Part shown: one piece after another, positions 5,395 to 36,072 of the stretch
Numbering within the stretch: position 1 is the first letter of the stretch
Layout: every line of letters begins with the position of its first letter
Program-made: the position numbers and the translations under genes
Notes under the pieces: model-generated
Databases searched by the model: none
The model's input: only the letters and a program-made list of their open reading frames with translations
What the model was told of the DNA's origin: nothing
Source: a virus
Length of the DNA stretch: 64,000 bases
Strand: one strand, 5' to 3'
Virus record (IMG/VR): IMGVR_UViG_3300043409_001491
Coordinates: 1-64,000 of that record

Positions 5395-5396
5395 AC

Positions 5397-13703: not shown

Positions 13704-13861
13704 TGAAAGATATATTATTGTCAATACTAACAGGTTTTGGATGTGGCGTAGTCTTTGCTGCATTCAAATTGCCAGTACCAGCACCACCAGTTTTTGCGGG
13801 AGTCGCAGGAATTGTAGGGCTATGGGCTGGATATGCTATACTAATTAAGGTTCTATCCTAG
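13703..13861 (+). CDS. XapX/DUF1427-like small membrane protein
   Basis: Translates MKDILLSILTGFGCGVVFAAFKLPVPAPPVFAGVAGIVG...; not in the ORF track. Confidence 0.75.
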   Translation: MKDILLSILTGFGCGVVFAAFKLPVPAPPVFAGVAGIVGLWAGYAILIKVLS

Positions 13862-13869
13862 GAGGAAAC

Positions 13870-15980: not shown

Positions 15981-16827
15981 TTAGTTGCTCCATTATCTTA
16001 ATACCCAGATCTCTTTTATATTTAATCCACCAACCAACAACCCTGTGCATGTTATTTGGATAGTTGTCTAGTAACTCTGGAAGAAGTTTTTCAATATTAT
16101 TCCAATTATCTACAGATTCAACAGGAAACTCAGGACCAAACATTTTTTTATAAAACTTTGTTTCTGTCATGCTTGGATCTAGTTTATCTGCAATCGGAAG
16201 GGTCAACAACTCTATTGATTCAAAGAATCTAAATGTATCTATCACTGCAGCACCAGATGGGCATGGAGCAATCTTTGCACTTGAGAGTTTAGCGTAGTAA
16301 TCTTTTGGTTTATCTCCCAGAGAGAACCCTCTTGTTGGCCCATAGAGTGAATTTTTTAGGATTGGCATAACCAATGCTAACTCTTTTCTTCTTGAGTGCG
16401 TTATCTGTCCACCAAAGTACACATCATATTCTTTTTCTTTATATTCTGGAGCGTTGTCCTTTAGGTGTTGTGGAACTCCAATTGGCATCTTGTTATATTG
16501 ATCATGCTTTTCATGAGGGTATTGAATCCATATCTCAATATTATTATGTCTAATTTTACTTACATCAAACCTAGCATTCTCATCTCCATTAATAAATAAA
16601 ACAACTCTAGAAAGTTTATTTAATTCATTAGATAGTTTATCTTCATTACCAGCAGTCTGTGGTCCAGGGATTACAACAAAGGCTTTATCTCCTTTTGGAA
16701 TTTCTGTAACCCTTATTTGATCTACTTCATGCTTATCAAATATTTCTTTTAATAATCCATAATCCCATTTGTCATTTGCATAATCTTGTCCATCATGAGA
16801 ATATAAGTATGCGCTATATTGATTCAT
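15973..16827 (-). CDS. Exostosin/GT47-like glycosyltransferase
   Basis: YDVYFGG, SAKIAPCPSG..DTFRFFES. Confidence 0.7.
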   Translation of the reverse strand: MNQYSAYLYSHDGQDYANDKWDYGLLKEIFDKHEVDQIRVTEIPKGDKAFVVIPGPQTAGNEDKLSNELNKLSRVVLFINGDENARFDVSKIRHNNIEIWIQYPHEKHDQYNKMPIGVPQHLKDNAPEYKEKEYDVYFGGQITHSRRKELALVMPILKNSLYGPTRGFSLGDKPKDYYAKLSSAKIAPCPSGAAVIDTFRFFESIELLTLPIADKLDPSMTETKFYKKMFGPEFPVESVDNWNNIEKLLPELLDNYPNNMHRVVGWWIKYKRDLGIKIMEQLNA

Positions 16828-17527
16828 AGTATAAATGAACCTCATGCTGATAGTCTAAAATTATTTCAGTGTATCCTAATCCTTTTATCCATTGTCTAAG
16901 ATTATATAAAGATTCATTCCATTGCTGTAGCATAAACTCAGGGTGTCCAGATAACCAAATCTTTGGTTTGTGCTCTCTAAGCACCCTCTCAGCCCCTCCT
17001 AGGACCCTCCACTCACTACCCTCTACGTCCAAGGAAATGGCGGTAGGGGCTTTAATACCATGATCATATACACAAGAGTCTATAGTAATCTGACCATAGG
17101 TTTCTCCTTCAAGGTATAGTTCTTTAAACCCGTGGGCTGCTTCAATTACATCGTTAACTTCTGGTGGCCATTCATCGTAATATATTCTTGAAAGACTGTT
17201 TATCTTATCAGATGCAAATCCAGGAATACAAACCATTGGAAGATCTAAATTATTTGCACTCCAGAGTAGTGGAAAGTGTGACCAGACTTTGGGGTTTGGC
17301 TCAAATACAACTACTTCCGCACCCCACATTTGACATAGTGCAGCAAACTCGCCCTCTTCTGCACCAACATAATACATAACATCTCCAGAAGAAATATTTT
17401 CAGACATGTGTTTTAGTCTTGGCTTTTCCCAACCATGTGGTTGATACCAATCAGGACGTGCAGCACGATGCTCTGGCAAAGTAATCTCAAACTCACCATT
17501 AATTATTACTTTTCTCATCTCTGTCAT
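16814..17527 (-). CDS. FkbM-family methyltransferase
   Basis: VGAEEG, FEPNP and LDVEGSEWRVLGG. Confidence 0.85.
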   Translation of the reverse strand: MTEMRKVIINGEFEITLPEHRAARPDWYQPHGWEKPRLKHMSENISSGDVMYYVGAEEGEFAALCQMWGAEVVVFEPNPKVWSHFPLLWSANNLDLPMVCIPGFASDKINSLSRIYYDEWPPEVNDVIEAAHGFKELYLEGETYGQITIDSCVYDHGIKAPTAISLDVEGSEWRVLGGAERVLREHKPKIWLSGHPEFMLQQWNESLYNLRQWIKGLGYTEIILDYQHEVHLYYESI

Positions 17528-18408
17528 TTCTGCAACCATTCTATTAATGATACCTTTGGTGTCCATCCAGTTAAACCTTTAAACTTTTCATTAGACGCAA
17601 GAGTTTCTTGTACTTCCCCAATTCTTGACGGGATAAACTTAACATCATTTGAAATCATATTAGCAATATCAATTATAGAATAGTTACTTCCATACCCAAT
17701 GTTATACACCTCACCAAAACCATGAGTTACTTCAGATGCAAGGATGTTTGCTTCTATTACATCAGATATATGTGTAAAGTCTCTGCGCTGAGATCCATCT
17801 CCAACAACTGTTAGCGGTTTGCCTTCATGGTATTGTTTTAAAAACAGTCCTATTACTGGTGCATACTGCCCTTTTAGTGGCTGTCTATCTCCATAAACAT
17901 TGAAGTATCTAAGTGATATAGTCTCAAGACCATAAAGATTATAATAAACTTTTGCAAGGTTTTCACCAAAGACTTTTGCAGCAGAGTATGGTGTTAGTGG
18001 GTCAGATGGTTGTGTTTCTATGTTTGGAAGTATTGCTTTCTTACCATAGGCAGATGATGTACTAGAATAAACAAACTTCTTTACTTTTGCTAAGCGAGAT
18101 AGTTCTAATACATTGGCAGTTCCCACTGCGTTAGACTCAATAGATTTTCTAGGGTTTAGTATTGCTGGTTGAATTCTTGCATCAGATGCAATATGAAATA
18201 CATAGTCAATTCCATTAAACAAATGTTCTATCTTGTTATAGTCACATATATCATATTTATAATTATTTGCTTTTGGGTTCCAGTAAAATTGCTCATGACA
18301 CTCTGCTGACTCATTATCTATACAGATAACATTATGACCAAGGTCTATAAGTTTATCAACAAGATTAGATCCAATGAAGCCTGCTCCTCCAGTTACTAAA
18401 CAATTCAT
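17524..18408 (-). CDS. NAD-dependent nucleotide-sugar epimerase/dehydratase
   Basis: TGGAGFIG, YSAAK, RYFNVYG and GDGSQRRDF. Confidence 0.93.
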   Translation of the reverse strand: MNCLVTGGAGFIGSNLVDKLIDLGHNVICIDNESAECHEQFYWNPKANNYKYDICDYNKIEHLFNGIDYVFHIASDARIQPAILNPRKSIESNAVGTANVLELSRLAKVKKFVYSSTSSAYGKKAILPNIETQPSDPLTPYSAAKVFGENLAKVYYNLYGLETISLRYFNVYGDRQPLKGQYAPVIGLFLKQYHEGKPLTVVGDGSQRRDFTHISDVIEANILASEVTHGFGEVYNIGYGSNYSIIDIANMISNDVKFIPSRIGEVQETLASNEKFKGLTGWTPKVSLIEWLQK

Positions 18409-19361
18409 TTAATACCCAACTCTTCTAAGATTGCAGTCCATCTATGGACATAGGTATGTTCTTTCTTTGTACGGTTGTGACCGTTGACTCTGATTCTTTC
18501 TCGTACCAAAGAGTTTTCAAGATACTGATCTATCTTATCTCTTAAGTCATTAAAGTTTCCATGCTTATAAAATACAACTTCATCAGGCATAAAGTATTCA
18601 TCTAATCCCTTAATTTCTGGGTAGATGGTAAAACCACCACGTCCAGTAGACTCAAACAATCTATCACTAGTGTAGTAAGGATAATCAAATCCTATGTTAA
18701 GACTATCTCCAACTGCAATCTTGCTCTTAGCATAGATGCGATTTAGTGCATCACCACGAATAGTTCCAGTGTCGCCATCTCCACCAACGTGAAGGAATCG
18801 TTTGCCGTATGTCTTTCTTAAGAAGTCAATTAGTTCTGGGCGATACTTATGTTCATGGTGATATCTTCTACTGCCAACAAAAATAACATCGTACTCAAAG
18901 TTTTGTGTGTCATAGTCTGGGTGGATGTAACATTCTTTATCATATACCCCTGCAGGCATGAAGTGGCCTTTTACGGCGGTATTGTGATCAAACCAATCAG
19001 CCATAAGTTTATCTACAGTAAAGAAATGACCAATAGTTCTATAGAAACTGTCATGCTTAAGATCATTTTGTCTATCAAGGCCAAACCATAAATCTAAATG
19101 ATATGTCATAGTAGGAACACCAGCAGATTTAAGTTTATTAAGAACGTCATCCATTGAGATGTTTCCACCAGTTTCCCAGCCATGTGTGTGCACCCAGATA
19201 AACAGATCAGACTCTAATGCTTTTTCTAGGATAGTTTGGGTCTTGGCCTTACGCTCCTGCAATTTTGTGACGGTATTGCCTAAAGACTCTAGACTACTAG
19301 CATGATGATTCTCACTGCTATAAGACACTTCAAAATTGCCAAGAAAAACTATATTAGCCAA
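18405..19361 (-). CDS. CgeB-like (Glyco_trans_1_2) glycosyltransferase
   Basis: YDVIFVG, YAKSKI and SDRLFE..GRGG. Confidence 0.8.
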   Translation of the reverse strand: MANIVFLGNFEVSYSSENHHASSLESLGNTVTKLQERKAKTQTILEKALESDLFIWVHTHGWETGGNISMDDVLNKLKSAGVPTMTYHLDLWFGLDRQNDLKHDSFYRTIGHFFTVDKLMADWFDHNTAVKGHFMPAGVYDKECYIHPDYDTQNFEYDVIFVGSRRYHHEHKYRPELIDFLRKTYGKRFLHVGGDGDTGTIRGDALNRIYAKSKIAVGDSLNIGFDYPYYTSDRLFESTGRGGFTIYPEIKGLDEYFMPDEVVFYKHGNFNDLRDKIDQYLENSLVRERIRVNGHNRTKKEHTYVHRWTAILEELGIK

Positions 19362-22253: not shown

Positions 22254-22603
22254 TTTAGATCCTTAGATACTAAATACTTGTCCATAAGTTCATTAAATAC
22301 TTTTTTGCATTTCTCATCATTCCAGCCATTTTCCATGCCAGTAGTTGATACCGCTTCTCTTAATTTACGGCTGTACCAGAATAAGTCGTTCATATATTTT
22401 TTTCAAGTTTATCAAGACGGTCTTTTAAAGGTTTTAGCATATGTAAAACCATAATAAAATCTAAGCCTAAGCCTAGAAATAAACCAAATAAAAACCATAG
22501 TAATGAGTTCATATATACATCATACCATTCGGCGAAAAAATTGTCAAGTCTTTAAAGTTCGGCGGAAATAGAGTAACAAACCTTCTCATGCCCTACACGG
22601 GCA

Positions 22604-23418: not shown

Positions 23419-23692
23419 AACTCAATCATATCAAAAAATTCGGGGAAAGTCAAGAAAGACCCCATTATCCCTAGTATAAACACATCATGGTATACATAGC
23501 GTACAAAAACAGTTTACTTCGTGATAGTGTGCTGGATTACATCTAGGACATTTGCTTGTTGGTTGCTCAATATAGTAGGCAACCTTAAACATTAAACCAC
23601 AGTTAAAGCATAGGATATTTGCCATGTATCCAGCATATCACAGATAGCCAGAGAGATCAATACCGTTTGAAATATGGGATGGTTTGACATAG

Positions 23693-23755
23693 TTATCCAC
23701 AGGTGGGAGGCGTGGTTTGATAGAGTTATCCACAGATTTACTATAGTTATCCACA
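23693..23755 (+). promoter_or_regulatory. Three perfect DnaA boxes
   Basis: TTATCCACA at 23693, 23726 and 23747. Confidence 0.85.
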
Positions 23756-23790
23756 GGTTAAATGTTACTGATATTTTTTAGATTTATCTT

Positions 23791-23820
23791 AAAGTGGAGC
23801 AAAGTGGAGGATAGTGGGTT
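23791..23820 (+). promoter_or_regulatory. MraZ-like 10-bp-periodic direct repeats
   Basis: AAAGTGGAGC AAAGTGGAGG ATAGTGGGTT. Confidence 0.6.
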
Positions 23821-24310
23821 ATTGGGCGTTTATACAGATGGCGTCGTAATGTCTAACAGCGGCCAAACCTCCTATCATAAAACCTTCACATTGTCAAACC
23901 TTACAAACCTTGGCATTATACCCCCAAACCTCCCATTTGTCAACTCTAAAACCCTACACAAAATGGCAGAAAATGTCCAATAAAATCATATAAAGGTTTG
24001 ATAATATTGATAATATCTAGAAAACCAGGGAAAAATATATAGTCTTCGTAATGTCTTTTAACCTATAGGGTTTGGTATATCTTCTGATCCCCGCCTGCAA
24101 ATGTGTAACAGGATTAGGACTTATGCTGGCGCCGCAGGACCGCCAAAATGCGGCGGTATAAAGAAGGATACGATTTACTCCTAGTATAACTACGAGAGTT
24201 ACCAAACCTTGCAAAGTATCTTTTAGGCATACAATAATTATACACTGGTTTGAAGGTTTGTCCATGAATCTGGAAAAATTATAAAAAGATCGTAATGTTT
24301 TTTTAAGGTT

Positions 24311-24592
24311 TTACTGCTGCTCGGATGATGCGATCTCAAGCAGTTCATCAAGGGTCATGCCCTCCATGATGTCATCAGGATCTACTTTAAGGGATCCAAT
24401 GAACATATCAAAGGTATCTATAACATACCTGCGTCCATCATCTGATAACTCTACTATCAAACCTTCACTTGTCAAAAAAGCCAGGGGAAGGCCAAGATCA
24501 TTAAACTCTACAAAATCTCTAAACTCTTTACTATCACCATAGTTAGCATGTAGTTCACCTAATATTCCACATACCGTTTCAAAATTAACCAT
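24311..24592 (-). CDS. Hypothetical acidic protein
   Basis: Leaderless after TGCTATACT. Confidence 0.75.
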   Translation of the reverse strand: MVNFETVCGILGELHANYGDSKEFRDFVEFNDLGLPLAFLTSEGLIVELSDDGRRYVIDTFDMFIGSLKVDPDDIMEGMTLDELLEIASSEQQ

Positions 24593-24740
24593 AGTTCAAG
24601 TATAGCAGATTCCCTGGTTCTGGGAAAAATAAGGTTTGATCGTAATAAGGTTTGAAGGTTTGGCTCGGGCCTCGGGCCCTGCCATTTCTGGCAGCCCCCA
24701 TTCCTAATGGATTGCTCAGCCCCCGCAGGGGCATTGCGTT

Positions 24741-24974
24741 TTATAAAATCTTATCGCTATAATAACCTAGCCTGTTATATTCCACAACTTCTTTATTATA
24801 TTCTGCTGCCTCTAATACTTCAAGTGCTCTACGATAAATTAAATATGGTTGAGCAACTGCAAGATATTTTCCTACTGCTTCAAGGTCTAGCGAATAATCT
24901 GATAACTGCTTGCCAATAGCAATAGCAACTTTTTCCTCTTTGCTTATACCTAGTTTAAGACCTCTCATCCTCAT
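24741..24974 (-). CDS. Hypothetical protein
   Basis: After TGATACAAT. Confidence 0.7.
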   Translation of the reverse strand: MRMRGLKLGISKEEKVAIAIGKQLSDYSLDLEAVGKYLAVAQPYLIYRRALEVLEAAEYNKEVVEYNRLGYYSDKIL

Positions 24975-25050
24975 CCCTCCATTGTATCAAAAAAAGAGGT
25001 GGAGGGCAACCCACCACAGTTCGCCCCCCACCATAAGTGCGAGAGTGACC

Positions 25051-25413
25051 CTACTCCCCCACTAGCGCAACGACAGGTTTATAAGCCTGTACAAATAGGT
25101 CCCAGTCAGCCTTAACGTTTCCGTCAATAACAACTTCCTGAATAATGTCAACTATAACGGTTTGATCACCTAGGTCAGATGATGTATCATTAATAGCATA
25201 AATTCCAAAGCCTGTCTCACTTAGGACGGAGTCTTGAATAAGATAACTAATAATCATACGTGTTACATAAGACTCATCGCTCCAACGTGGACGTGCATGG
25301 TCCAGCGCCATTGCTAGGTCTCTCTGCCATTCATCCTGACCCCAGTGACTGTAGAGCACTACTGCAGGTTTGTCTTCTCTGTCTTTAAATACAAAGTGAA
25401 TCCGTGCTCCCAT
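25051..25413 (-). CDS. Hypothetical phage protein
   Basis: AAGGA RBS; MGAR...LYSHWG. Confidence 0.75.
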   Translation of the reverse strand: MGARIHFVFKDREDKPAVVLYSHWGQDEWQRDLAMALDHARPRWSDESYVTRMIISYLIQDSVLSETGFGIYAINDTSSDLGDQTVIVDIIQEVVIDGNVKADWDLFVQAYKPVVALVGE

Positions 25414-25423
25414 TTTTATATCC

Positions 25424-25603
25424 TTACTTTGGTAGGCACTTAGTGATTCGCCAGTACTTCCAGCAATCCATGCCCTTATGCTCAAAGTACTTAGATATTG
25501 CAGGCATGTTTAAACGTGTAGGAACAACAGGGTCTGCAGCAAACGTTGGTGTTGCAGTCAGTGTAAGTCCTACTGTAATTAATACCGCTACTACTTTTTT
25601 CAT
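25424..25603 (-). CDS. Small protein with a signal-peptide-like N-terminus
   Basis: MKKVVAVLITVGLTLTATPTFA. Confidence 0.5.
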   Translation of the reverse strand: MKKVVAVLITVGLTLTATPTFAADPVVPTRLNMPAISKYFEHKGMDCWKYWRITKCLPK

Positions 25604-25638
25604 TATATTCCATTCTCTAGTTTGTGTGTTGTTTAACA

Positions 25639-25821
25639 TTACTCTGCTTCTTCCTCTTCTATGTCTGTTACTTCTAGTGGATACCAATCATATGCATAGT
25701 CCTCAACATTTTCACTTAACTCTATGCGGTTCATCTCATCAAGTGCTTCTTGCTCTGATTCTGCCTCAATTTCAAACTCATAGTGAATTTCTCTAGTGGC
25801 AGTTATTCTGTATAGTGACAT
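25639..25821 (-). CDS. Small acidic hypothetical protein
   Basis: EIEAESEQEA motif; RBS. Confidence 0.7.
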   Translation of the reverse strand: MSLYRITATREIHYEFEIEAESEQEALDEMNRIELSENVEDYAYDWYPLEVTDIEEEEAE

Positions 25822-26256
25822 TTACTTCTCCAATCCTACTAAGGTCATTTCTTCAATGGTAGCACAGTTAGGGCATTTTTCCAAATCGTGCTCTTGGAAG
25901 GCATCTCTGATAAGATTATCAGGGTCTTCTAATTCTGAATCACAGTTCTCGCAGTAATACCACGGTATACCAACTTGAATCTGTATAGTAGTATTATCAG
26001 GGAAAGGAACCTCAGTGACAAAGTATCCTATTCGATTAACAAATCCCCAGCCAGACCAGATGTACAGGCCACCGTCGTCTCCGTCACCAAGCATCCAGAT
26101 ACGGTTTTCATCCTGCGTCTTGACAAACTCTACCTCAGAGCCATAGGTCTCAAACATGTGGCCATCAAATGAAGAGGTAACGTCAATGTGATTCTTGATA
26201 GGCTTATAAGTGTTAAACCATTCATCTTCTGTAAGTTCAATAAAGTTATCAGTCAT
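25822..26256 (-). CDS. Hypothetical protein with a C-terminal Zn ribbon
   Basis: FETYG; two CxxC. Confidence 0.75.
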   Translation of the reverse strand: MTDNFIELTEDEWFNTYKPIKNHIDVTSSFDGHMFETYGSEVEFVKTQDENRIWMLGDGDDGGLYIWSGWGFVNRIGYFVTEVPFPDNTTIQIQVGIPWYYCENCDSELEDPDNLIRDAFQEHDLEKCPNCATIEEMTLVGLEK

Positions 26257-26467
26257 TGTCTTCTGCTAACTCTACCGTGCAGATATAGTATTTGCCTAAG
26301 AAAATATTATATGCTGCTTCAAGGCCATCTACAAACCCTCTGGCCTCTGTACGTTCCATGGATAGCATTGCGTCCCCATAGTCGCCGTCTTCTTCTTCCT
26401 TGGCTATCTCTAAGAAATCTAAAGTAGCCTTGTCAATCATCTGTTCTAACATTTCTTGCGGGGTCAT
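26249..26467 (-). CDS. Small acidic hypothetical protein
   Basis: GGAG RBS; coupled gene. Confidence 0.7.
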   Translation of the reverse strand: MTPQEMLEQMIDKATLDFLEIAKEEEDGDYGDAMLSMERTEARGFVDGLEAAYNIFLGKYYICTVELAEDND

Positions 26468-26706
26468 CGCTTCTCCTCTATGTTTTTGCGGTCTATAGAT
26501 AAATTATAGGTCATGCAGTATACATTTGTCAAGGCCTCTAGATACCCTTCCAAAAACCTATCGTCATTGTCTCCGTCCATAACTTCTTCTGTCTCCAGCA
26601 TTTCAACCTTTAGGTAGCCGTGGATAACATCAATTAATGGGATAGTTATATCTTCAAGGGACTTAACTAAATATTCAGGGATAAAAGGATACTTATCACT
26701 CATCAA
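26464..26706 (-). CDS. Small acidic hypothetical protein
   Basis: GGAGG RBS; coupled gene. Confidence 0.7.
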   Translation of the reverse strand: MMSDKYPFIPEYLVKSLEDITIPLIDVIHGYLKVEMLETEEVMDGDNDDRFLEGYLEALTNVYCMTYNLSIDRKNIEEKR

Positions 26707-27536
26707 TAACCTCCAGTATATGGTCTAGACAAACGATTGCTCCAGTTAAATAGTTATAGGTTGCGTCCTTGCTTGGTAGGTCTTCAAGGCTATCCCTATC
26801 CTGTACTATGGATATGCGGTGTATCTTGATATATTCTCGTAGTGTTTTTATGTTCATATATTAATTATAGTGGTTTGGGCTGACAGGGTCAAGTTCTACA
26901 GGTGTGATGTTGGTCACTTCCCTGGACAGTTCATGTGAAAGTATACTATTAGCATATGCTCAGGATCTGTTGTGGTTGCTCCACATGTGTTACAGGACCA
27001 AGATTGTTTAGCCATTAGCAGTCCTCACATAGTACATCGCCATAAGGAATAGATTTGCCACACTCACAACACCAAGACTCATCTTTCATCCCCATTAATC
27101 AAAGTACCCTTCTGCCCATAGCCCCTGGAGAAACTCTCTAGTAGTAACTAGGTAGTTATAGATAGCAGGGTGCTCATCAGAGTTGATTAATAGTATAGCG
27201 TTATCAACACCATATGTCATGTTGTTTAAGTCTTCTAATTCATAGCCTAACATTAGCCTACCCCCAGTATTCTAAGATAGTTTGCATGGTAGTATGTATT
27301 ACGCAGTCACAGTCTCCACCCATGTTATCCATGAATTCAAGATGTGAGTAGTTGTCGTTGTAGATTTCATCTACGAGTTCGCTTATTGTGTATGGTTTGA
27401 ATGTTGTTTGAGTCATGTATTAATTATCGCATGAAACTGGGAAAATGTCAACTCTTCCGTAATGAAGATTTGAGAAAAATAACACTGTTACGTAATAAGA
27501 GTTGTAACAAAATGTTATAAAACCCGAGCCAACCTT

Positions 27537-27611
27537 GCGATTCCAACGGGACTTGAACCCGTAGCCTCTACCGTGACAGGGTAGCGATCTAACCAATTGA
27601 TCTATGGAATC
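27537..27611 (-). tRNA. tRNA-Asp(GTC)
   Basis: GATTCCA/TGGAATC acceptor stem, CTGTCAC loop, GTTCAAGTC. Confidence 0.92.
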
Positions 27612-27615
27612 TTGC

Positions 27616-27643
27616 GAGCAGTTTTAAATCTTGCTCAGGATTT
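27616..27643 (-). ncRNA. H-type pseudoknot motif, copy 1 (others at 28829, 29513, 30113, 32915)
   Basis: AAAUC-CUGAGCAA-GAUUU-AAAAC-UGCUC; P1 covaries across five copies. Confidence 0.65.
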
Positions 27644-27647
27644 TTTA

Positions 27648-28664
27648 CTATGCGAGTTGCATTACATTCTGTACAACTTTTAGCAAACGATTTTTTTCTG
27701 CATTGATAGCAGGGTCAAATCCGCTTGCACTTGCTAGGATTGATTCATTAGAACCACCACGAGCAGAACGATACCAATCAAGACGCTCAGTTAGCGCATT
27801 GAAAGCACCCCACGCATTACCAGCAATCATGCCGTTATATTCGCCAGTGTAAATGTCATTGATAACATCTATTTTGTTTTCCCACTTCTTTACAGCACCC
27901 TTAGAATCTTTTTCAGGTTTTGCATAAGCAGCAAGAATAATATCGTTGAATTGCTTGGCAGAAACTTCTTTTTCAATCATAGCCTTAGCCATGATATCAA
28001 ATGCGTCCATGTACTTGTTAGCCATGCCAAGGGTCTCACGAGCAACTTGCACCTTACCGCTTGCAGTTTGTGTGTGACGAATCTTGAATGATTGCTTTAC
28101 GCCACCCTTGACTTTTTTCTGATTAAGTGCAAGATTGAGAGTGTTAGCGCATACTACACGAACAGGTGTGATACTTGCTTGAATAGCGATAGAACCATCG
28201 TGTGATGTATTGATAAGCAAATAAGTCTTTACCTTATCTGCAACACCGCTAGGGTCTAGAATTGTCTCACGCTCTAGTGCAAGAGAACCAAATACAACAC
28301 GTCCACCCTTGATTGCGCCAGCAGTTTCCCAACGTCCACCACCATCTAGAATGTTATCACCAAATGAGAATAAATCTTCATTCTGCATTACATGGTAACG
28401 CTCACCAACAACACCAAGAATGTCTGTCTGTGAATTATCTGTAGGGTTAGTACGCAATACATATTGATATTGTTTATCACTTGTTAAGTGTGATGGAGTA
28501 ATCATATCCTCTAGACGAACATTCCAGCCATTAAGATTTGCTGCTTCCAGCATTTCGATAGTAGATTTTTCTTCTGTGAATACGGTACCCAATCCATGCC
28601 AAGCAGGCTCACGGAAAGAGGCGAAAGATTCTTTTCCGTTTTGTGTTTCTATGTCATGTGCCAT
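27648..28664 (-). CDS. DUF932-family phage/plasmid protein
   Basis: PAWHGLG, ETAGAIKGG, NTSHDGS, RVVCANTL and IRHT. Confidence 0.9.
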   Translation of the reverse strand: MAHDIETQNGKESFASFREPAWHGLGTVFTEEKSTIEMLEAANLNGWNVRLEDMITPSHLTSDKQYQYVLRTNPTDNSQTDILGVVGERYHVMQNEDLFSFGDNILDGGGRWETAGAIKGGRVVFGSLALERETILDPSGVADKVKTYLLINTSHDGSIAIQASITPVRVVCANTLNLALNQKKVKGGVKQSFKIRHTQTASGKVQVARETLGMANKYMDAFDIMAKAMIEKEVSAKQFNDIILAAYAKPEKDSKGAVKKWENKIDVINDIYTGEYNGMIAGNAWGAFNALTERLDWYRSARGGSNESILASASGFDPAINAEKNRLLKVVQNVMQLA

Positions 28665-28903
28665 GAGTTTTTTCCTTTTCTGTTGATTGTTTATACTAAG
28701 TTTAGCAGACAGGGCTGACAAAGTCAAATCGTCCTAGCAGACAGGGGACAATCTGGACATTTCTTAAAGTGTCGTAAATCACATGTGATCTTGGTCACAC
28801 CCCCCGAGTTTTTTATGGCAAAAAAATTAAGCAGTTTACATGGCCATGCTCAGGGCCCTTGCCTAGTTTAAAGACATTCGGCATGTCTATTAGTAGCCCC
28901 CTA

Positions 28904-29329
28904 CTAAATATCTATTCTGTCAACACTGGCTGACAACCAAGAAATATTATCTGAGTTATATTGAACGGTATCAAAATCAATATCGTGAATTGTATTCTGT
29001 GCAGACTCCTCATCACGAGCATTAACTGTAACTGAATAAAGAACTGTAACTTCTAGTTCAAATTCTTTAGTTAGTTCAAAGCCCATAATTTCAGCAATTT
29101 GTTCTGCTTGAGATTCAGAGATATCTTCATTCTCTAATTCTTTAAGGGTCCAGTCTTGCATTCCCTCAACCATACGGTTACGGTCTGCAGAATCTGTATA
29201 TGAACGTTGTGTTACTTTTTGGATGTGCTCTTCAAGATTAGCAATGCGCTCATCCTTGATTTGAATCTGAGACTTAAGAAAGTCTTCTGTAGCATTTATG
29301 ATTGTTACTGATGTTTCTGCTTGGTCCAT
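28904..29329 (-). CDS. Hypothetical protein
   Basis: AGAGG RBS after a TGTCAG promoter. Confidence 0.75.
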   Translation of the reverse strand: MDQAETSVTIINATEDFLKSQIQIKDERIANLEEHIQKVTQRSYTDSADRNRMVEGMQDWTLKELENEDISESQAEQIAEIMGFELTKEFELEVTVLYSVTVNARDEESAQNTIHDIDFDTVQYNSDNISWLSASVDRIDI

Positions 29330-29417
29330 GAGGGGCCTCTTTCTGTAGTTGGTTAGTTTAATTATACCGCTGGCCACTGACATTTGTCAAGGGCCCTGGA
29401 TCCTGGGAAAAGGGGTA

Positions 29418-29500
29418 GATGGCGGTGTGCCGTTATGACTCAATACCCTTTGGTTAAAGGGTCACACTCTTACCTATGCCGTCGGAACGGACAGACCATC
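29418..29500 (-). ncRNA. Putative structured RNA
   Basis: Nested stems GAUGG/CCAUC, CCGUU/AACGG, GUGAC/GUCAU and CCUUU/AAAGG in an ORF-free gap. Confidence 0.4.
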
Positions 29501-29645
29501 ATTTAATTGTATGAGCAGTTTTGATACTTACTCAGGTAATTGCACTTCTTGCAGTTGGTGCGAACTGGCTCTATAGTATTTCTATTATCGCCCTAATCAG
29601 CCTGGCGAAAGTTGAGGGAGGTTTTTACGCCTCCCCCAATTTCAT

Positions 29646-30068
29646 TTATAGGTATTGTGCGATTGCGTTGTAAGTTGAGGTATTTACTGTTTCCTCATCT
29701 GTCATCTTTAACAGACGAATTGCATTTGAGATTTCTTTCTTTGACTCACGATAAGAGTGTTGATGGATTACTTCGTATTCCTTCTCAGGCTCTTGTGGCA
29801 AATCTTTTTCTGCAACTGTCAAATCAAAGTCAATGTTTAGATTGTTTGAGTATGAGCGATAGTTAGTGCGGAAGTTTTCTGCCTTCTCTATGTTTGCTAC
29901 GGCATAAGAAATAAGTTCTTTCTTATACACATCATAAGCCATCTGATACTTTGCTTCTTTTGCGTTTTGTGTTGCGTAGTCTGCTTCTAGTGTAGCAAGT
30001 GCTTGCTCTAGTCCTGCGATTACACGAACTGTTGGGATTTTTACATTTATTGCTTTTGCTCTAGCCAT
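29646..30068 (-). CDS. Hypothetical protein
   Basis: ORF followed by a hairpin terminator. Confidence 0.75.
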   Translation of the reverse strand: MARAKAINVKIPTVRVIAGLEQALATLEADYATQNAKEAKYQMAYDVYKKELISYAVANIEKAENFRTNYRSYSNNLNIDFDLTVAEKDLPQEPEKEYEVIHQHSYRESKKEISNAIRLLKMTDEETVNTSTYNAIAQYL

Positions 30069-30153
30069 CTGTTTATCTCTTTTCTTTGGTGGTTTGTTAG
30101 TGGGGGTGGTGTGAGCAGTTTTGCACAGACATACTCAGGTCTTTTGTTTTAGA

Positions 30154-30318
30154 TTACTTTGCTGTCCAAGTTGTGTAGCGAGTGTTACCTTCTACATTTA
30201 ACTTAACACGAACATTTCCGTTAGCAAGAGTTGTGATTTCCTCAATGACTCCTGTTACCTTTGACTTTTGAGTTGTGTAGGTATCTCCTACGCGATAGGT
30301 TGCGGTTGCTACTGACAT
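30154..30318 (-). CDS. Small SH3/KOW-like beta protein
   Basis: AAGGA RBS; YRVGD..TGVIEEI. Confidence 0.65.
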   Translation of the reverse strand: MSVATATYRVGDTYTTQKSKVTGVIEEITTLANGNVRVKLNVEGNTRYTTWTAK

Positions 30319-30506
30319 GATTTCCTTCTTTCTGTTTGGTTGATATTTAAGTATAACATTTCCTACTGACATTTTGCAAATCCTACCCTAACATTTCTCA
30401 CTATGTGAGATGACTAGGGGTGTGATTTGGGTCACTTTTTATGCCCCATGCCTGCGAATAGAATAATGATAAATAATACAGTTAAGATTAAGATTTCCAC
30501 TTAGCC

Positions 30507-31229
30507 TCATTTCTTAGTTGCAGAAAAAACTATGTCTGCTTTAGAGTATACACACAATGAGCAAGAAACGCAAGCGGAGCCTTTTGTACTGATTAGAGGT
30601 ATCTGCCTATTATTCTCAGGACACTTCGCGGCAGGGCGATTAGTAAGTGCCTTCATGTCTGCTTGTCCTATTAGAAAGTTTTTAGCAAGGTATGCAAGAC
30701 GAATGCCATGATCATTTTTCAGGGTAACGCCAATAGACTTATTCTCACTATCTGTGGAATAATATAAAGATAGATTAGCAATGTCCTTAAGCATAACAGC
30801 GGCAGACTTAACTCTAGTGTATACCCAGAATTGTATATTAGTATTGTTAAGGATGATATTCTTCCATGCTTGTGTATAAGTATCATTGAAGAAATCTCCG
30901 TCCCAGTGGATACGGAATAGTTTTGGGGCATTGCGTTTATCACAGTCAATAATAAACTCATCTATCATTTGAGTTAATAACACCTGCATGGTGTCAAGGT
31001 CTGCGTCTTTGAGTAATTCCCAGTTATGCAATAAGTTTTTCTTTACCGCTGGGAAGACCTTTTCCAATTTGCCTGCATAGCAAACAGTCTCACAGACAGT
31101 AGTTGCGCCAGGACATGAATAGGCCTTTCCTGCTGGTAATCCGAAAGTGTTGGCGATACTTGCTTGTTTTCCATTTGGTGTGACGGCATTGGCTACTTTC
31201 CTATCTTTGCTTCTAAGTAATTTAGTCAT
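30507..31229 (-). CDS. Gp88-like (radical-SAM-like Cys-rich) phage protein
   Basis: CPGATTVCETVCYA, RIHWDGDF, WVYTR and C-terminal CxxCxxC. Confidence 0.8.
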   Translation of the reverse strand: MTKLLRSKDRKVANAVTPNGKQASIANTFGLPAGKAYSCPGATTVCETVCYAGKLEKVFPAVKKNLLHNWELLKDADLDTMQVLLTQMIDEFIIDCDKRNAPKLFRIHWDGDFFNDTYTQAWKNIILNNTNIQFWVYTRVKSAAVMLKDIANLSLYYSTDSENKSIGVTLKNDHGIRLAYLAKNFLIGQADMKALTNRPAAKCPENNRQIPLISTKGSACVSCSLCVYSKADIVFSATKK

Positions 31230-31485
31230 GGTGGGTTACTCGCTTTCTTGTTCTAATTCTACTACAGGGGACTGACAAATATTCTTTCTAGAATAAGTTT
31301 TCTTTGAAGGCACAGCCGTAGCAGCGTTAGACCTACGTAATTCCATAAGTCTACGTAATTCTTCAGGTGTTTTCTTCATACTTAATTTTAGCAGAAATGG
31401 GAAAAAATGTCAACTTACGTAAACGACACGCCCAGTGCGCCCGAGGTTTTTTATGCGGGGAAGTGCATAAAAACTTTAGTAATTA

Positions 31486-31716
31486 TTATTCTTCAAAAAA
31501 TACATACCACTCAATAGTTTCATCATCAAATAAATAAACATGACCCTCTTCATTAAAATCATTTCTAGTGTAAATATTAAATCCATCTGCATTTTCTGTA
31601 ATGGTTTCAATAGTTACACATTCATCATCAACCTTAATTAGATCGCCTTCCATAAGTTGAGAGGGCAATAAGTTATCAGCAAATCTAAGTTCCATGCTGT
31701 TTATTGTATCAGACAT
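31486..31716 (-). CDS. Small acidic hypothetical protein
   Basis: GAGG RBS. Confidence 0.65.
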   Translation of the reverse strand: MSDTINSMELRFADNLLPSQLMEGDLIKVDDECVTIETITENADGFNIYTRNDFNEEGHVYLFDDETIEWYVFFEE

Positions 31717-31717
31717 T

Positions 31718-31993
31718 TCAATCCTCATCTACTGGGTCAATGAACCAATTAAGGTGGTGTTGGTCTACAATCGCTCTTGCTGGTGCGTGACTCATACCCT
31801 TATAGAATACGCCTTCAGGCATAGCAATAAATCTTTCATAGTCCTCATCATAGTAAGCGTCAATAGCCTCAATACAAGGCTGAACCATAGAAAGTGGTAC
31901 TGGTGGATAGTGATTACCCCGTAAGTGATACGCTAATTGCGTTTCTAAATCTAATACTGTATCTTTGATACCTAGTGCTGTTACGCTTCCCAT
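31718..31993 (-). CDS. Hypothetical phage protein
   Basis: HLRGNHYPPVP motif. Confidence 0.75.
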   Translation of the reverse strand: MGSVTALGIKDTVLDLETQLAYHLRGNHYPPVPLSMVQPCIEAIDAYYDEDYERFIAMPEGVFYKGMSHAPARAIVDQHHLNWFIDPVDED

Positions 31994-32211
31994 TATTTAC
32001 TTACGACCTTTCGTCCTTCACGATAGAAAGTGGTGGTGTGCATTTTTCCATTAGGCTCTGATAGATTAACTGTTGCGTATTCATCAGCCATTCCCCAATC
32101 AGTAAACGATAGATAAGACTTTACTGCATCAAGTGCGTTGTCATAGCGACCAATCCAATGAGGCGACCTATCTCCGTCATAGGTGTTTGTTACTGAATAT
32201 AGATATTCCAT
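31993..32211 (-). CDS. Hypothetical protein
   Basis: Coupled ORF; AAGGAG RBS. Confidence 0.7.
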   Translation of the reverse strand: MEYLYSVTNTYDGDRSPHWIGRYDNALDAVKSYLSFTDWGMADEYATVNLSEPNGKMHTTTFYREGRKVVSK

Positions 32212-32393
32212 TATGCATTCTCCTTAGTGTATTCATTCATTTCATTCTCAGCATACCATAGGGTGTATTCAATCGCAATCGCTGTACCCTTTTCACAATC
32301 GTTGCAAAAATCTGTAATAAACTCATTCTTCATTATGAGTCCTTCATCATAGCAAGTGTAGCAAGTGCCAATCTCATCAAATAAGTTTCCCAT
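32211..32393 (-). CDS. Small Zn-finger protein
   Basis: Two CxxC; AAGGAG RBS. Confidence 0.65.
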   Translation of the reverse strand: MGNLFDEIGTCYTCYDEGLIMKNEFITDFCNDCEKGTAIAIEYTLWYAENEMNEYTKENA

Positions 32394-32504
32394 TATTTAT
32401 ACTCCTTAACGCAATTAGTGCAAATAGAATAGTTAGTGCAATAGCATGATTTCGCATTAGGGCGAAGCATATCTGTTTCATAGTAGTCATCATAGAAATC
32501 CATA

Positions 32505-32735
32505 TTAGTCCCCTACCTTTACTGCAATCGTAGCATAAAAATCTTCCTTGGGCAAATCAGGGAACCCACGATAGGTAGGGCGTACTGTTACAAGATAGGC
32601 TTCAGCATTATGAAAATAAATATTTTCACGCTTTTCTGCATACTGTATAATTCCTTCCAAGCCTCTACGCTTTAGAGAGTGTGAGCGATAATACTTACCT
32701 TCAAGTAAATCTGTTATTGTGTATTCTGTAGCCAT
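32505..32735 (-). CDS. Hypothetical protein
   Basis: First gene after a TGTCAG promoter. Confidence 0.7.
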   Translation of the reverse strand: MATEYTITDLLEGKYYRSHSLKRRGLEGIIQYAEKRENIYFHNAEAYLVTVRPTYRGFPDLPKEDFYATIAVKVGD

Positions 32736-33092
32736 AGGGGCGACCTCTTTCTTTAGTTAATTTATTATTACTCTGTAATCCTACCATGGCAGGCTGACAA
32801 AAATCTAATTACTAGCCAGTAGTCTTAAATAATGAGACGCTCAAGGATTGTGAGAAAAATCACATCGTACGTAAAGTTATCCACAGCCTGTGGAAAACCC
32901 CCCGAGAAAATATTGAGCAGTTTTATATCTTGCTCAGGATTTTATTTTATTTGTTGCGTTCATCTCGCAATTTAAGTTGCAGCCTGCGAATTTCTTTCTG
33001 TTGTTCAATGTTGTGTTTCCAAAATACAAGCATCATTGAAAGAGATCCAGCAAGTGCAATTACAATTGCAATAAGTGTTCCAGTGTCAAGAA

Positions 33093-33275
33093 TCATACTG
33101 TTTCCATCTCCTTAACGCAAGCATCCCAAAATCTTGTTTCATCAAATCTTGGATTGTCTGCACTAAACCACTCGCTGAATTCAAAAACTAAATCTTGAAA
33201 TACGTGTGAGTCAATAGTATCTGCAAACTGGTTTAGAATTTTTGCAGTTTCTACATAGTCTTTGCGTGTCATCAT
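33093..33275 (-). CDS. Hypothetical phage protein
   Basis: MTRKDY...DNPRFD..RF. Confidence 0.7.
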   Translation of the reverse strand: MMTRKDYVETAKILNQFADTIDSHVFQDLVFEFSEWFSADNPRFDETRFWDACVKEMETV

Positions 33276-33481
33276 TAGTTGGCCACCTTTAGAATTGCAT
33301 AAGAGCCATTTTCATTTATTTCATCAAGGGCTGGCTGAATTCTTGGCGCAAGTAAATCTTTTAGCATTGACTCTAGCATTTGAATTTGCATTGACTCTGA
33401 AAGTCTAAGCAGTTGCATTCCTACTGGGTGAGTTTCGTCAACCTCTGTTACGAAGTGAAGTGAGTGAGGTATTTTTACCAT
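33275..33481 (-). CDS. Hypothetical protein
   Basis: Coupled ORF. Confidence 0.65.
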   Translation of the reverse strand: MVKIPHSLHFVTEVDETHPVGMQLLRLSESMQIQMLESMLKDLLAPRIQPALDEINENGSYAILKVAN

Positions 33482-33656
33482 GTTTTTTATTTCCTATTCT
33501 TTTAGTTGGATTCAGGGGTATTGAATAAATTAAGGTCTTGCTCTAGTGAAAAATCACATTCGCAAGTTTCTACATCAAAATCATTAGCGTTACCAAAAAA
33601 TAGTAACCCTGTTGAATTGCATTCCTCGCAAGGAATTGTTAGGACTGAGTTTATCA

Positions 33657-33842
33657 TTATACTAAGGCCTTCCCTCTAAGTGTTCCACGAATACCAAGCA
33701 AGTCGCATGATACTTTTACAGATACGCCAACAGGTAGCGCATTAGGATAGTTAGAGATAAAATCTGCAACCTGTCCTCTAGTTGATAGGGGAATTGTTTT
33801 TACTGAACCTGAATAGGTTTCTAGTTTTATAGTGTAAGTCAT
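33657..33842 (-). CDS. Hypothetical protein
   Basis: GAAAGGA RBS after a TGTCAG promoter. Confidence 0.7.
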   Translation of the reverse strand: MTYTIKLETYSGSVKTIPLSTRGQVADFISNYPNALPVGVSVKVSCDLLGIRGTLRGKALV

Positions 33843-33901
33843 TTGGTGACTTCCTTTCGTTTTAGTGATAAGACTATCTTACCATTAGGGGCTGACATTT
33901 T

Positions 33902-33979
33902 AGGGCATTTATTCGCTAGGCTCATTGTGATACTGGTCACACTTATTTGCTAGGCTCATGCCCTTATTTAATTGTTATA
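33902..33979 (-). ncRNA. Putative small RNA with a symmetric GAGCCUAGCRAAUAA internal loop
   Basis: Own TTGCTT-17-TATACT promoter, no ORF, AGGGCAU/AUGCCCU outer stem. Confidence 0.5.
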
Positions 33980-35251
33980 AGGCAAGTATAGCAAAAAAAT
34001 ATCAAGAAAGCAAATCGACACGCCGTAAATCAGGGGAATAGTAGTGTGATCTTAACCACATAAGTTATACACAGGCTGTGGAAAACCCCGAGCAAAAATT
34101 GCAGAGTTTTTATTTCTGCAATCTTTTTTATTTATGCTCCGTTATGAAACCAAACTACAAGAGCAGTGCAAGTCATAGCAATAAGAATAACTATCATTTA
34201 TTTATTCTCAATCTCATCTAATAGTTCCCAAAGTATTGGCTCTAATTCTTTAGCAGCCAAATCTAATTTATCTTGTAAGGTTTTCATTTATTTAACTCCC
34301 TTGTATAGAAAATCCCAAGCCTTACGGCAGATTAAAATTGAACGGCAGTTATCACAACAGATAACACCATGGGGGTTAAGGTCTAAGTCATAGACATCAA
34401 CAGAGGCAGAAGACTTACCACATACAGAAGCAAGGTTTAGAAATGTACTCATTTAGTTAAATACCAATCTGTCCACATAGGTAGACGCTCAGGGTCATGG
34501 TCGCCATAGTAGCGCTCAATATTTTGTTCACAATCTTGGCAGAAAGTAAATTGCTCATCTCCTACTGAGGAGATAGCGGAAAGCATAGGATTATGCTCTT
34601 TACATATTGTTGAGATAGTCATTACTTGACCCCCTCAAACAATTCTTTACACTTGTTAGGATTTTCCCACCAAGTGAAACCTGCGTGATACTTAGCAGGG
34701 GCGAGGACAACCTGTCCACAAGGGCAGAGGTTCATTACACCTCTAGGGTAATCGCTAACAGTAGCGAACTTTTCAAACAATGAATTCATTTTGAATTCCT
34801 TTCTTTAGAGGATTTCTTTACCTCTTGTTTTTCTTTATACTGTAATTGTAGCAGGGGGGACTGACAAATTGGGGGGTTACTGGCCAGTATTTTAAAACTA
34901 TTTTTGTGATACTCGTCACATTTACCCGAGCAAAAAATCGTAGGTTTTATTCTACGATCTTTTTTTTATTTAGAATAACTTCCAGATTTTATTAGCAAGT
35001 CTAACTTTTTTGCTAGTGGGTCAATGTATTCATCTTCCCAAAAGTTTTCTATTTCTAGTTTTTCTACATAGTCTCTCATTTAGTTCTCCTCTCTTTCTAG
35101 TAGGAATAAATTGTTTAGTGTTTGATTAGCACGATTAAGAGTGTTGAGCAATTCACGATTAGCGAACGCTTGGCGTTCCTCAGCATACTTAGCCTGTTGG
35201 GCTAGTCGCAATTCCTCTAAGCGAGGGGATAGTTTAGGGTTAGTCATTTAC

Positions 35252-35476
35252 TTATTCCCAACTTCTACTAGTAGCGTACACCTTGCGATTGCTAGGTGTG
35301 TAGTTAGGTAACTCAGTTAGAGCAACCTCTAGGATAGTACCTTGTAAGGCTACTATGTCTAAGTATTCGTTAGCGTAGACTTCGCTAGGTACTACTAGAG
35401 TAGTTGTACTAAACTCTCTTGAGAGAGGATAGTTTGGGTTAGAGTTATACTCTACCTTGTATTTTAGTGAAAACAT
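35252..35476 (-). CDS. Hypothetical protein
   Basis: GAAAGGA RBS after a TGTCAG promoter. Confidence 0.7.
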   Translation of the reverse strand: MFSLKYKVEYNSNPNYPLSREFSTTTLVVPSEVYANEYLDIVALQGTILEVALTELPNYTPSNRKVYATSRSWE

Positions 35477-35527
35477 TTTGTTTTCCTTTCTTTATCAAGA
35501 ACCTTTCTTGATTTTCTTTATACTAGT

Positions 35528-35735
35528 ATTATAACACCTACCACTGACATTTAGGGGTGTACAAAACGGACATATGGTACATATGCCACTGTGACATACA
35601 TCATGTGGATAACTTGAGCGTGTTTTAAGGGTGTGATGTGCGTCATGTGGATAACTACCCGAGCCAAAATGTGAGGTAGATCACATGCAGGATACGGCGT
35701 GTCGCCTTGACTTTTAGGGGTATCTATGTTATACT
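35528..35735. promoter_or_regulatory. Divergent promoter region with CRP, DnaA and GACAC sites
   Basis: TGTGGATAA at 35604 and 35646, TGTGA-N6-TCACA at 35670, GGCGTGTCG at 35696 abutting TTGACT-17-TATACT. Confidence 0.8.
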
Positions 35736-35780
35736 TCTAGTATTAGATAGTTAAAGTATAACTATAAAGAAAGGTTCAAA

Positions 35781-35891
35781 ATGAACACTATAGAAAAAAA
35801 TGAGGCTCTCGCTCAGACACCTGAGCAGACCCTAGCAGACTATGCTAGATTAGACGCACTTATCGCTAAGGGTACCTACTCAGATAAGTGA
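35781..35891 (+). CDS. Small hypothetical protein
   Basis: GAAAGG RBS; MNTIEKNEALAQTPEQ... Confidence 0.55.
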   Translation: MNTIEKNEALAQTPEQTLADYARLDALIAKGTYSDK

Positions 35892-36072
35892 CCTATATCA
35901 CACCACGCCAACGGCGTGTCGCCTTGACTTTTCAGGGGATATAGGATACCCTTACAGGTATAACAATTAAATAGTAACACAAATCCTAGTGAGCCCTACA
36001 TAGTAGGCAAATAACTTAGGTCAGCAAAAAGGTTAGCAAATCGCTAACAGTTAAAAACGAAAGGTGTTCACA

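Follow-up and report, generated by a model that had tools for sequence, protein, structure and literature searches.

The DNA examined here, 64,000 nucleotides of a virus (positions 1 to 64,000 of IMG/VR record IMGVR_UViG_3300043409_001491; hereafter the window), raises the question of who reads the repeated sequence words that fill the spacers between its small genes. The window covers the opening 64 kb of a phage genome of 105.9 kb that has direct terminal repeats, a GC content of ~37% and a coding fraction of 93% over its whole length. Genes in the 14.2-35.5 kb stretch point leftward; those beyond 24 kb mostly have 50-90 codons and lie in short cassettes with intervening spacers of 100-450 bp. 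The block at 23.4-36.1 kb is a series of small-gene cassettes, each with its own terminator and promoter. Because of a WhiB-like (Wbl) gene and of protein kinship to Streptomyces phages, its sequence indicates that the virus is an actinophage. The nearest isolates at the protein level are ~130-kb Streptomyces phages (~50% identity), and megablast of the region against an isolated-phage collection gave no match. An earlier description of this region from the letters alone, the original prediction, had proposed a dense array of sites for host global and cell-cycle regulators, used either to gate individual cassettes by host state or as a decoy sponge. We find that the main element, absent from that description, is a series of PafBC-type promoters, and we hold with moderate confidence that the small-gene cassettes would be under host-factor-dependent promoter control.

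The small-gene cassettes carry PafBC-type promoters

Nine leftward promoters (minus strand, 26.8-35.6 kb) have the form TGTCAG-N10-TAnnnT and lack a -35 (Table 1); transcription start sites are predictions throughout. The minus-strand consensus of the spacers is AwwTGTCAGyCC-N4-TGnTAtAAT, the TG extension being usual, and a logo of 444 distinct contexts contains almost no information upstream of TGTCAG except for an A/T-rich triplet, followed downstream by the -10 with its TG extension. Relatives were collected from IMG/VR in two sets, one of 80 related lake-phage contigs picked via the DUF932 gene and one of 106 low-GC loci picked via another motif, with protein identity of just 30-70%; shared descent inflates counts over relatives, and distinct sequence contexts were taken where possible. 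The N10 spacing occurred in relatives in 592 sense matches compared with 50 antisense, while any other spacing gave 30 or fewer. Promoters dependent on PafBC lack a -35 and carry the motif tGTCgg(N10)tA(N3)T, in which GTC is strictly conserved and the 5' part spans -23 to -28; they are read by RNA polymerase with SigA through PafBC, a mode termed 'sigma adaptation' (PMC8635444). Given that the motif, the N10 spacing and the missing -35 equal the published form, we concluded from the sequence that the cassette promoters have the PafBC (RecA-NDp) form. Single-stranded DNA (ssDNA) is reported to be the activating ligand of PafBC (PMC11804915). A possible 47-codon open reading frame (ORF; 31379-31236, minus strand) starts just past a WhiA-type promoter and overlaps the PafBC-type promoter at 31277-31256.

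Regulator-type sites are confined to the spacers and conserved in relatives

All motifs named in the original prediction were recovered where it had located them (Table 1). Its 'about 11' CRP-type palindromes were a fair count, as there are five exact and four one-mismatch intergenic copies, and of five intergenic matches with two mismatches three stand in motif context; the other two, at 27469 and 30110, look like chance. The DnaA boxes are exact copies of TTATCCACA, apart from inverted partners with one mismatch each, the four GACAC sites are exact copies of GGCGTGTCG, and the GTGG repeats noted near 23791 form one triple repeat. The claim that the sites are nearly all intergenic held for the whole genome, in which 5/5 exact palindromes, 4/4 copies of GGCGTGTCG and 6/9 of TTATCCACA are intergenic within 23.6-36 kb. 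The sites were also enriched: when the 4,099 intergenic bases were dinucleotide-shuffled 300 times, no shuffle came up to the observed count of any motif, and the five exact and four one-mismatch CRP-type sites in 4.1 kb of spacers compare with 0.13 sites expected. The motifs were conserved, being 25- to 100-fold above reversed controls in the 80 loci (TGTGA-N6-TCACA, 393 against 4; TTATCCACA, 434 against 17; GGCGTGTCG, 226 against 2). The 106 low-GC loci gave 342 palindromes against 1 and 252 copies of TTATCCACA against 5. An unbiased ranking of intergenic 9-mers in the 80 relatives placed TTATCCACA first and CGACACGCC twelfth.

A second promoter class carries a WhiA-type motif

The GGCGTGTCG word extends to CGACACGCCG(T), of which the logo ACGGCGTGTCG (181 contexts) is the reverse complement; the reverse complement of this logo, CGACACGCCGT, equals the Mycobacterium tuberculosis WhiA ChIP/IDAP motif GACACGCC. 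The latter, described for WhiA/WhiB2, is a mycobacterial extension, (C)GACACGCC(G), of the GACAC core, for which an earlier data set had given the consensus CGACACGCCGn (PMC13473873). Each of the four GGCGTGTCG copies in the window is followed, after 2 or 10 nt, by a -35-like hexamer and, 17 nt beyond that, by an extended -10. The arrangement with 2 nt between motif and -35 recurs in 59 of 181 distinct contexts of the relatives, and the -35 of the class is typically TTGACw. In an IMG/VR scan for CGGCGTGTCG-NN-TTGAC nearly all matches were low-GC relatives, and the few unrelated higher-GC matches were within chance for 15 specified bases. WhiA is reported to bind directly upstream of the -35, tethered by WhiB on sigma region 4 (PMC10243135), and the phage Wbl protein is a possible partner of host WhiA at these promoters. 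A structure-sequence search matched it to WhiB3 and WhiB1, a match that does not resolve its subclass, and it retains the Cys residues and GVWGG. Compared with cellular genome contigs, the phage WhiB had a single match at 69% identity, on CAYZIG010000046.1 (4054 bp) of a metagenome-assembled genome labelled Candidatus Saccharibacteria; this contig is probably a mis-binned phage fragment.

CRP-type palindromes are exchangeable modules

Palindromes of the CRP/GlxR type (logo aTGTGAt.ta.ATCACA) stand upstream of about half of both promoter classes. The gap between palindrome and TGTCAG peaks at 28, 38 and 47-50 nt, which, with the -10 at -12 to -7, puts the centres in the PafBC class at -64.5, -74.5 and -85.5; in the second class the palindrome is most often 10 or 20 nt away from the WhiA motif, giving the same -64.5 and -74.5 registers. 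Orthologous spacers switch between palindrome registers. Strict helical phasing of the palindromes was considered and only partly holds, given minor gap classes of 33/34 and 65/66 nt. Because such off-phase classes exist and ~45% of TGTCAG promoters have no palindrome within 75 bp, we concluded that the palindrome is an optional add-on module. In the orthologous DUF932 spacer of relatives the distal module is a CRP palindrome, a DnaA-box pair or a WhiA motif with divergent TTGACA, while the proximal elements are constant; these swaps favour selected, exchangeable cis-modules over inheritance of one duplicated spacer, and since modules are exchanged at orthologous spacers the input set of each cassette evolves fast.

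Just upstream of the DUF932 promoter lies an ATGTCC..GTCC repeat (28728-28765) that is nearly invariant among relatives and is similar to the CGGACA..GGACA repeats preceding the DUF932 homologue in Streptomyces phage NootNoot. Its sequence suggests that it may be the operator of a phage-encoded regulator common to distant phages.

DnaA boxes and an MraZ-type repeat share a locus at 23.7 kb

The 23.7-kb locus consists of three exact DnaA boxes in one orientation, an AT-rich tract and the triple GTGG repeat. The boxes lie on a single strand with helical spacing, an arrangement suited to DnaA oligomers. Relatives carry 2-5 boxes at the equivalent place, with start-to-start distances among distinct sequences of 11-12, 21, 33-34, 42 and 55 bp; the order of the locus elements is kept, and the word TTACTGATA of the tract is nearly invariant in ~30 distinct relatives. 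The lower strand of 23756-23793 reads as six NAN triplets, a putative DnaA-trio-like pattern that is weak evidence in AT-rich DNA. The triple GTGG-N6 repeat was present in 53 of 80 loci, one copy each, and in the strict GTGG[A/T]G form in 34, compared with no match for the reversed and period-11 controls and one for period 9; in 47 of the 53 relatives having it, it lies 36-38 bp (usually 38) past the last DnaA box. Copies of AGGTTTG/CAAACCT are many in 23680-24662 (e.g. 23866, 23897, 23926, 24247-24260 and 24649-24662); some are fused to DnaA boxes (tGGTTTGAyAgAGTTATCCACAG), and they are kept beside the DnaA/MraZ locus in relatives. Their sequence would fit iterons or binding by an unnamed factor.

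For this locus only, and compatibly with host-factor control of the promoters elsewhere, 23.69-23.82 kb may be the phage replication origin, opened by host DnaA for the phage DnaB, DnaG and Pol III alpha, possibly with the AGGTTTG repeats as iterons; we take this as a serious possibility that falls short of probable. The basal unwinding system of oriC has tandem boxes separated by at most 3 bp, then a short spacer, three or more NAN trios and AT-rich DNA (PMC8287927). The locus resembles it in the conserved TTACTGATA and T-rich tract after the boxes and in boxes that lie on one strand at ~11-bp multiples, ending in most relatives in a tandem pair 2-3 bp apart; in the window, however, the last two boxes are 21 bp apart and not tandem, and the NAN pattern counts for little in AT-rich DNA, the trio orientation being putative. 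The phage carries Pol III alpha, DnaB, DnaG and RecA, and no initiator was found among its genes, so a replisome lacks its own initiator; yet these replication genes are 65 kb away from the locus. A consensus promoter is oriented so as to read through the locus, which also favours an origin, whereas the MraZ-type repeat has no explained role in one. GC skew gave no origin signal; it tracks transcription, following gene orientation, and was discarded as an uninformative indicator.

Table 1. Promoters, regulator-type sites and associated features in the window
Feature	Position	Strand	Details
PafBC-type promoter	26864-26918	-	TGTCAG 26885-26880, -10 26869-26864; CRP-type site 26903-26918 centred ~-53.5
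PafBC-type promoter of DUF932 gene	28699-28799	-	TGTCAG 28720-28715
Abutting CRP-type sites above DUF932 promoter	28768-28783, 28784-28799		two mismatches (first), exact (second)
PafBC-type promoter	29361-29382	-	TGTCAGTGGC-N6-TATAAT; TTGACA also precedes; no CRP-type site close by
PafBC-type promoter	30350-30436	-	TGTCAG 30371-30366; CRP-type site 30421-30436 centred ~-85.5
PafBC-type promoter upstream of GP88-family gene	31256-31277	-	without CRP-type site
PafBC-type promoter	32778-32897	-	TGTCAG 32799-32794; CRP-type site 32849-32864 centred ~-85.5
Head-to-head DnaA-box pair at the preceding promoter	32877-32885, 32889-32897		
PafBC-type promoter	33876-34085	-	TGTCAG 33897-33892; CRP-type site 33926-33941 centred ~-64.5
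PafBC-type promoter	34845-34920	-	TGTCAG 34866-34861; CRP-type site 34905-34920 centred ~-74.5
PafBC-type promoter	35549-35528	-	TGTCAGTGG-N7-TATAAT
Two composite sites upstream of 35528 promoter	35590-35612, 35632-35654		CRP-type half-palindrome overlapping exact DnaA box
WhiA-type promoter	31385-31432	-	GGCGTGTCG 31432-31424, 10 nt upstream of TTGACA-17-TAAAAT; TG extension
WhiA-type promoter, upstream in 33876-34085 spacer	34024-34016 (motif)	-	then TTGCTT-17-TATACT
Sites beyond 34016 WhiA-type promoter	34045-34060, 34065, 34077		CRP-type site (first); degenerate head-to-head DnaA-box pair (second, third)
Rightward promoter	35670-35735	+	CRP-type 35670-35685 (centre ~-64.5), WhiA-type 35696-35704, -35 TTGACT 35707-35712, -10 TATACT 35730-35735
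Second rightward promoter, same build	35887-35952	+	CRP-type 35887-35902 (centre ~-64.5), WhiA-type 35913-35921, -35 TTGACT 35924-35929, -10 TACCCT 35947-35952
CRP-type TGTGA-N6-TCACA, exact (n=5)	28784, 32849, 33926, 34905, 35670		
CRP-type, one mismatch, intergenic (n=4)	26903, 30421, 34045, 35887		
CRP-type, one mismatch, in coding DNA	36889		
CRP-type, two mismatches, intergenic, motif context	28768, 35590, 35632		
DnaA box TTATCCACA, exact	23693, 23726, 23747, 32877	+	
DnaA box TTATCCACA, exact	35604, 35646	-	
Inverted DnaA-box partners	32889, 34065, 34077		one mismatch each
GGCGTGTCG, exact	31424, 34016	-	
GGCGTGTCG, exact	35696, 35913	+	
Three exact DnaA boxes, one orientation	23693-23755	+	boxes 23693, 23726, 23747; longer repeats ending in aGTTATCCACAG
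AT-rich tract	23756-23793		word TTACTGATA at 23765-23773; between DnaA boxes and GTGG repeats
MraZ-type triple repeat	23794-23819	+	GTGGAG-N4-GTGGAG-N4-GTGGGT; 10-bp period
Consensus promoter TTGACA-17-TATAAT	23915-23943	-	leftward through CAAACCT/AGGTTTG repeats, MraZ-type repeats and DnaA boxes
ATTACG(A)/TTTTCCC modules	24023-24059, 24267-24303, 24622-24646, 27440-27470, 31395-31420	-	
WhiB-like (Wbl) gene	10270-10554	+	PF02467, 44 bits

Host factors would be the simplest readers of the site words

The phage proteins contained no CRP helix-turn-helix (HTH), cyclic-nucleotide-binding (cNMP-binding), DnaA domain IV, MraZ, WhiA HTH, WYL or sigma region 4 domain; neither PF13545 nor PF00027 was found in the phage, and 45 small ORFs compared with Pfam and PHROGs yielded no HTH family. 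One weak HTH_17 match lies at genome position 88511-89053. Because five unrelated motifs each equal a published regulator consensus and have the expected geometry, host factors would be the simplest readers of the sites. The identities given to the motifs in the original prediction are supported, in that the WhiA motif is the M. tuberculosis consensus, the GTGG repeat has the Bacillus subtilis MraZ form and the matching domains were not found in the phage. Since exact, conserved sites of five regulators, which are not phage-encoded, stand at fixed promoter positions, the phage probably times its small genes by the state of the host cell. Of the two uses first proposed for the array, cassette gating is favoured because the sites hold fixed promoter positions, and the decoy sponge found no specific support.

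Several observations weigh against host-factor control. The host is taken to be an actinobacterium solely on account of the WhiB gene and of a distant relationship to Streptomyces phages, and high-GC actinobacteria favour TTGTCCACA as DnaA box. The palindrome registers are 3 bp off the class I CRP positions of Escherichia coli, the minor gap classes are out of helical phase, and nearly half of the PafBC-type promoters (~45%) go without a palindrome nearby. Equally abundant intergenic words, namely the CCTGAGCA..AAACTGCTCA hairpin, AGGTTTG, TCGTAATG and the ATGTCC repeats, fit no named regulator. DNA-binders missed by Pfam and PHROGs could be encoded among some 60 small ORFs of unknown function. 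Finally, post hoc matching of repeats to a large motif catalogue exaggerates agreement and risks over-reading.

The leading alternative for the promoters is that phage-encoded regulators, among the small unknown proteins, use the sites as operators; they would have converged on or been copied from host specificities, and control would be an internal cascade instead of a response to host state. Early phage genes are often controlled by repeated spacer operators, many intergenic words here match no regulator, and NootNoot has the same cassette layout with private words (CCCGGACA, CGGACA) that match no host regulator, a related ATGTCC..GTCC repeat standing upstream of the DUF932 gene in the window. 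We nevertheless consider this unlikely: five unrelated motifs equal published host consensus sequences over 9-18 specified bases each, five separate mimics would be needed in one phage, and neither the matching domains nor an HTH family was detected in it.

A sponge, in which multiplying phage genomes titrate scarce host DnaA, MraZ, WhiA and Crp and so arrest host replication and division, appears more doubtful still. Such an effect has a parallel in B. subtilis, where titration of DnaA by box clusters away from oriC is reported to influence initiation (PMC3245932), and ~10 boxes per genome multiplied by the burst copy number make a large sink. Titration does not need the fixed promoter registers and strands that the sites keep, though, and the genome offers one MraZ operator and four WhiA sites and is devoid of the sites over its other 90 kb. 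DnaA titration by replicated genomes could be a side effect. It is very improbable that the motifs bind no protein and simply hitch-hike in one duplicated spacer or form RNA hairpins, because although the spacers are stereotyped and a 5-bp palindrome is foldable, the flanks are information-free around fixed cores, the modules swap independently at orthologous positions and persist in relatives with only 30-50% protein identity, no Rfam family matches (a search at E up to 0.1 returned tRNAs only), and the asymmetric DnaA, WhiA and GTGG motifs cannot be hairpins.

A proposed model of cassette control by host state

Under host-factor control of the cassettes, infection would expose ssDNA and host PafBC would then fire the TGTCAG cassettes, while host Crp would tune individual cassettes according to cyclic AMP (cAMP) from class-I-like positions. 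The second promoter class, to which both rightward promoters of the divergent region (35.7-35.95 kb) belong, would be driven by host WhiA together with the phage Wbl. At the 23.7-kb locus, DnaA and MraZ would either work on a chromosome-like origin that serves a phage replisome without initiator or, alternatively, block read-through transcription from the 23943 promoter. In its fullest form, which we put forward tentatively, the model would have a widespread family of lake actinophages run its small-gene programme on a panel of five regulators, PafBC (DNA damage/ssDNA), Crp (cAMP), WhiA with phage WhiB (division), DnaA (replication) and MraZ (division), with modules swapped so that each cassette computes its own function of host state, and with the DnaA/MraZ locus coupling phage replication to the host cell cycle.

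Other elements and genes

Further words recur in the region. Hairpin-like CCTGAGCA-(8-14 nt)-AAAACTGCTCA elements lie at cassette 3' ends (27616-27647, 28838-28870, 29511-29540, 30108-30140 and 32908-32940); their arms are the second most over-represented intergenic 9-mers in the 80 relatives and are strongly conserved in orthologous alignment, with no Rfam match. By sequence and position they may be terminators or processing sites. A lone tRNA-Asp gene (27537-27611), one of six tRNA genes of the phage, is found within the small-gene block with a hairpin element and a TTGACA promoter on its flanks. A third promoter-like module, repeated in minus-strand orientation, combines ATTACG(A), placed a few nt ahead of the -35, with TTTTCCC in its spacer. 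At 22519-22570 a TTGACA-17-TATGAT promoter has CGCCGAACTT ahead of it, and AAGTTCGGCG is strongly intergenic-specific in relatives (62 contexts compared with 7 in coding DNA) and may represent another promoter class within the 20-23 kb block.

The phage products include a DUF932 protein and a GP88-family protein. The first large ORF (280-975) has a sub-threshold Pfam match to the sigma-binding region of the anti-sigma-D factor RsdA (E 6e-4), and its product may be a phage anti-sigma factor. Host-like auxiliary genes were seen at 1-14145 (GlcNAc-family glycosyltransferase, APS kinase, sulfotransferase, Hsp20, thioredoxin and Asp/Asn beta-hydroxylase) and at 14194-19361 (GDP-mannose-dehydratase-like epimerase, FkbM methyltransferase and glycosyltransferases). 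DUF7455 was matched in two batches of ORFs, one in 1-14 kb and the other in the small-gene region.

Comparison with known systems

Were the fullest form of the model true, it would provide the first known instance of a phage exploiting PafBC sigma adaptation, as well as the richest example of viral sensing of host physiology by means of borrowed cis-elements: a lytic-type 106-kb phage, with cassette promoters made of sites for up to five host master regulators, coupled to that physiology more densely than any described. It would also supply a natural promoter panel for PafBC, WhiA/WhiB, Crp, DnaA and MraZ of uncultured, streamlined freshwater actinobacteria, in which such regulators cannot be approached genetically.

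The PafBC-dependent (RecA-NDp) promoters of Mycobacterium and other Actinobacteria share with the phage promoters the bipartite tGTC(R)g-N10-tAnnnT, with its upstream part at -28 to -23, and the missing -35 (PMC8635444). The phage copies differ in that nine lie within 9 kb and serve tiny genes of unknown function, not repair genes; yCC is commoner than gtg after TGTCAG, and many copies have an upstream CRP-type site. WhiA/WhiB promoters of Streptomyces venezuelae (sepX, PMC10243135) and M. tuberculosis (PMC13473873) have this 8-10 nt word immediately before the -35, whereas here the Wbl is phage-encoded, WhiA would come from the host and the targets are phage genes. At the 23.7-kb locus the partial likeness to the oriC basal unwinding system (PMC8287927) lies in one-strand consensus boxes, of which two often form a tandem pair separated by 2-3 bp, and in the spacer, putative NAN triplets and AT-rich DNA that follow; the phage has no dnaA gene, and its further boxes are paired in promoter spacers, where DnaA would be a transcription factor (PMC8203912). 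The B. subtilis MraZ operator is three GTGG[A/T]G units with 4-nt spacers, the single such triple repeat in that genome (bioRxiv 10.1101/2022.02.09.479790). The phage likewise has exactly one copy of this triple-repeat form. Whereas the B. subtilis repeat belongs to the mra (dcw) promoter, the phage copy does not precede mraZ; it lies beside a DnaA-box array in a predicted transcribed leader and has GTGGGT as its third unit.

Among phages, NootNoot (NC_042009.1, Stanwilliamsviridae) is alike in its DUF932 gene (~50% identity) and in a left arm of leftward micro-genes, each with terminator, repeat-bearing spacer and promoter. It differs in having its own vocabulary of CCCGGACA, CGGACA repeats and a TAGACT -10, and its spacers contained no CRP, DnaA, WhiA, MraZ or PafBC words; the putative borrowing is therefore specific to the low-GC lake clade. 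No phage with PafBC-type promoters, or with five host regulators combined, was found in the literature collection searched. Sites of single host regulators are familiar in phages, such as the Spo0A boxes of phi29 and the NtcA sites of cyanophages. CtrA-binding sites occur in promoters of phages of Alphaproteobacteria, where they have been linked to 'lytic deferment' (PMC9437464), and LexA boxes in phage GIL01 (PMC4551915). The CtrA and LexA phages resemble the present one in placing sites of a host master regulator in phage promoters so that expression follows the state of the host, but each uses one regulator, whereas here five are apparently combined and their modules shuffled among relatives.

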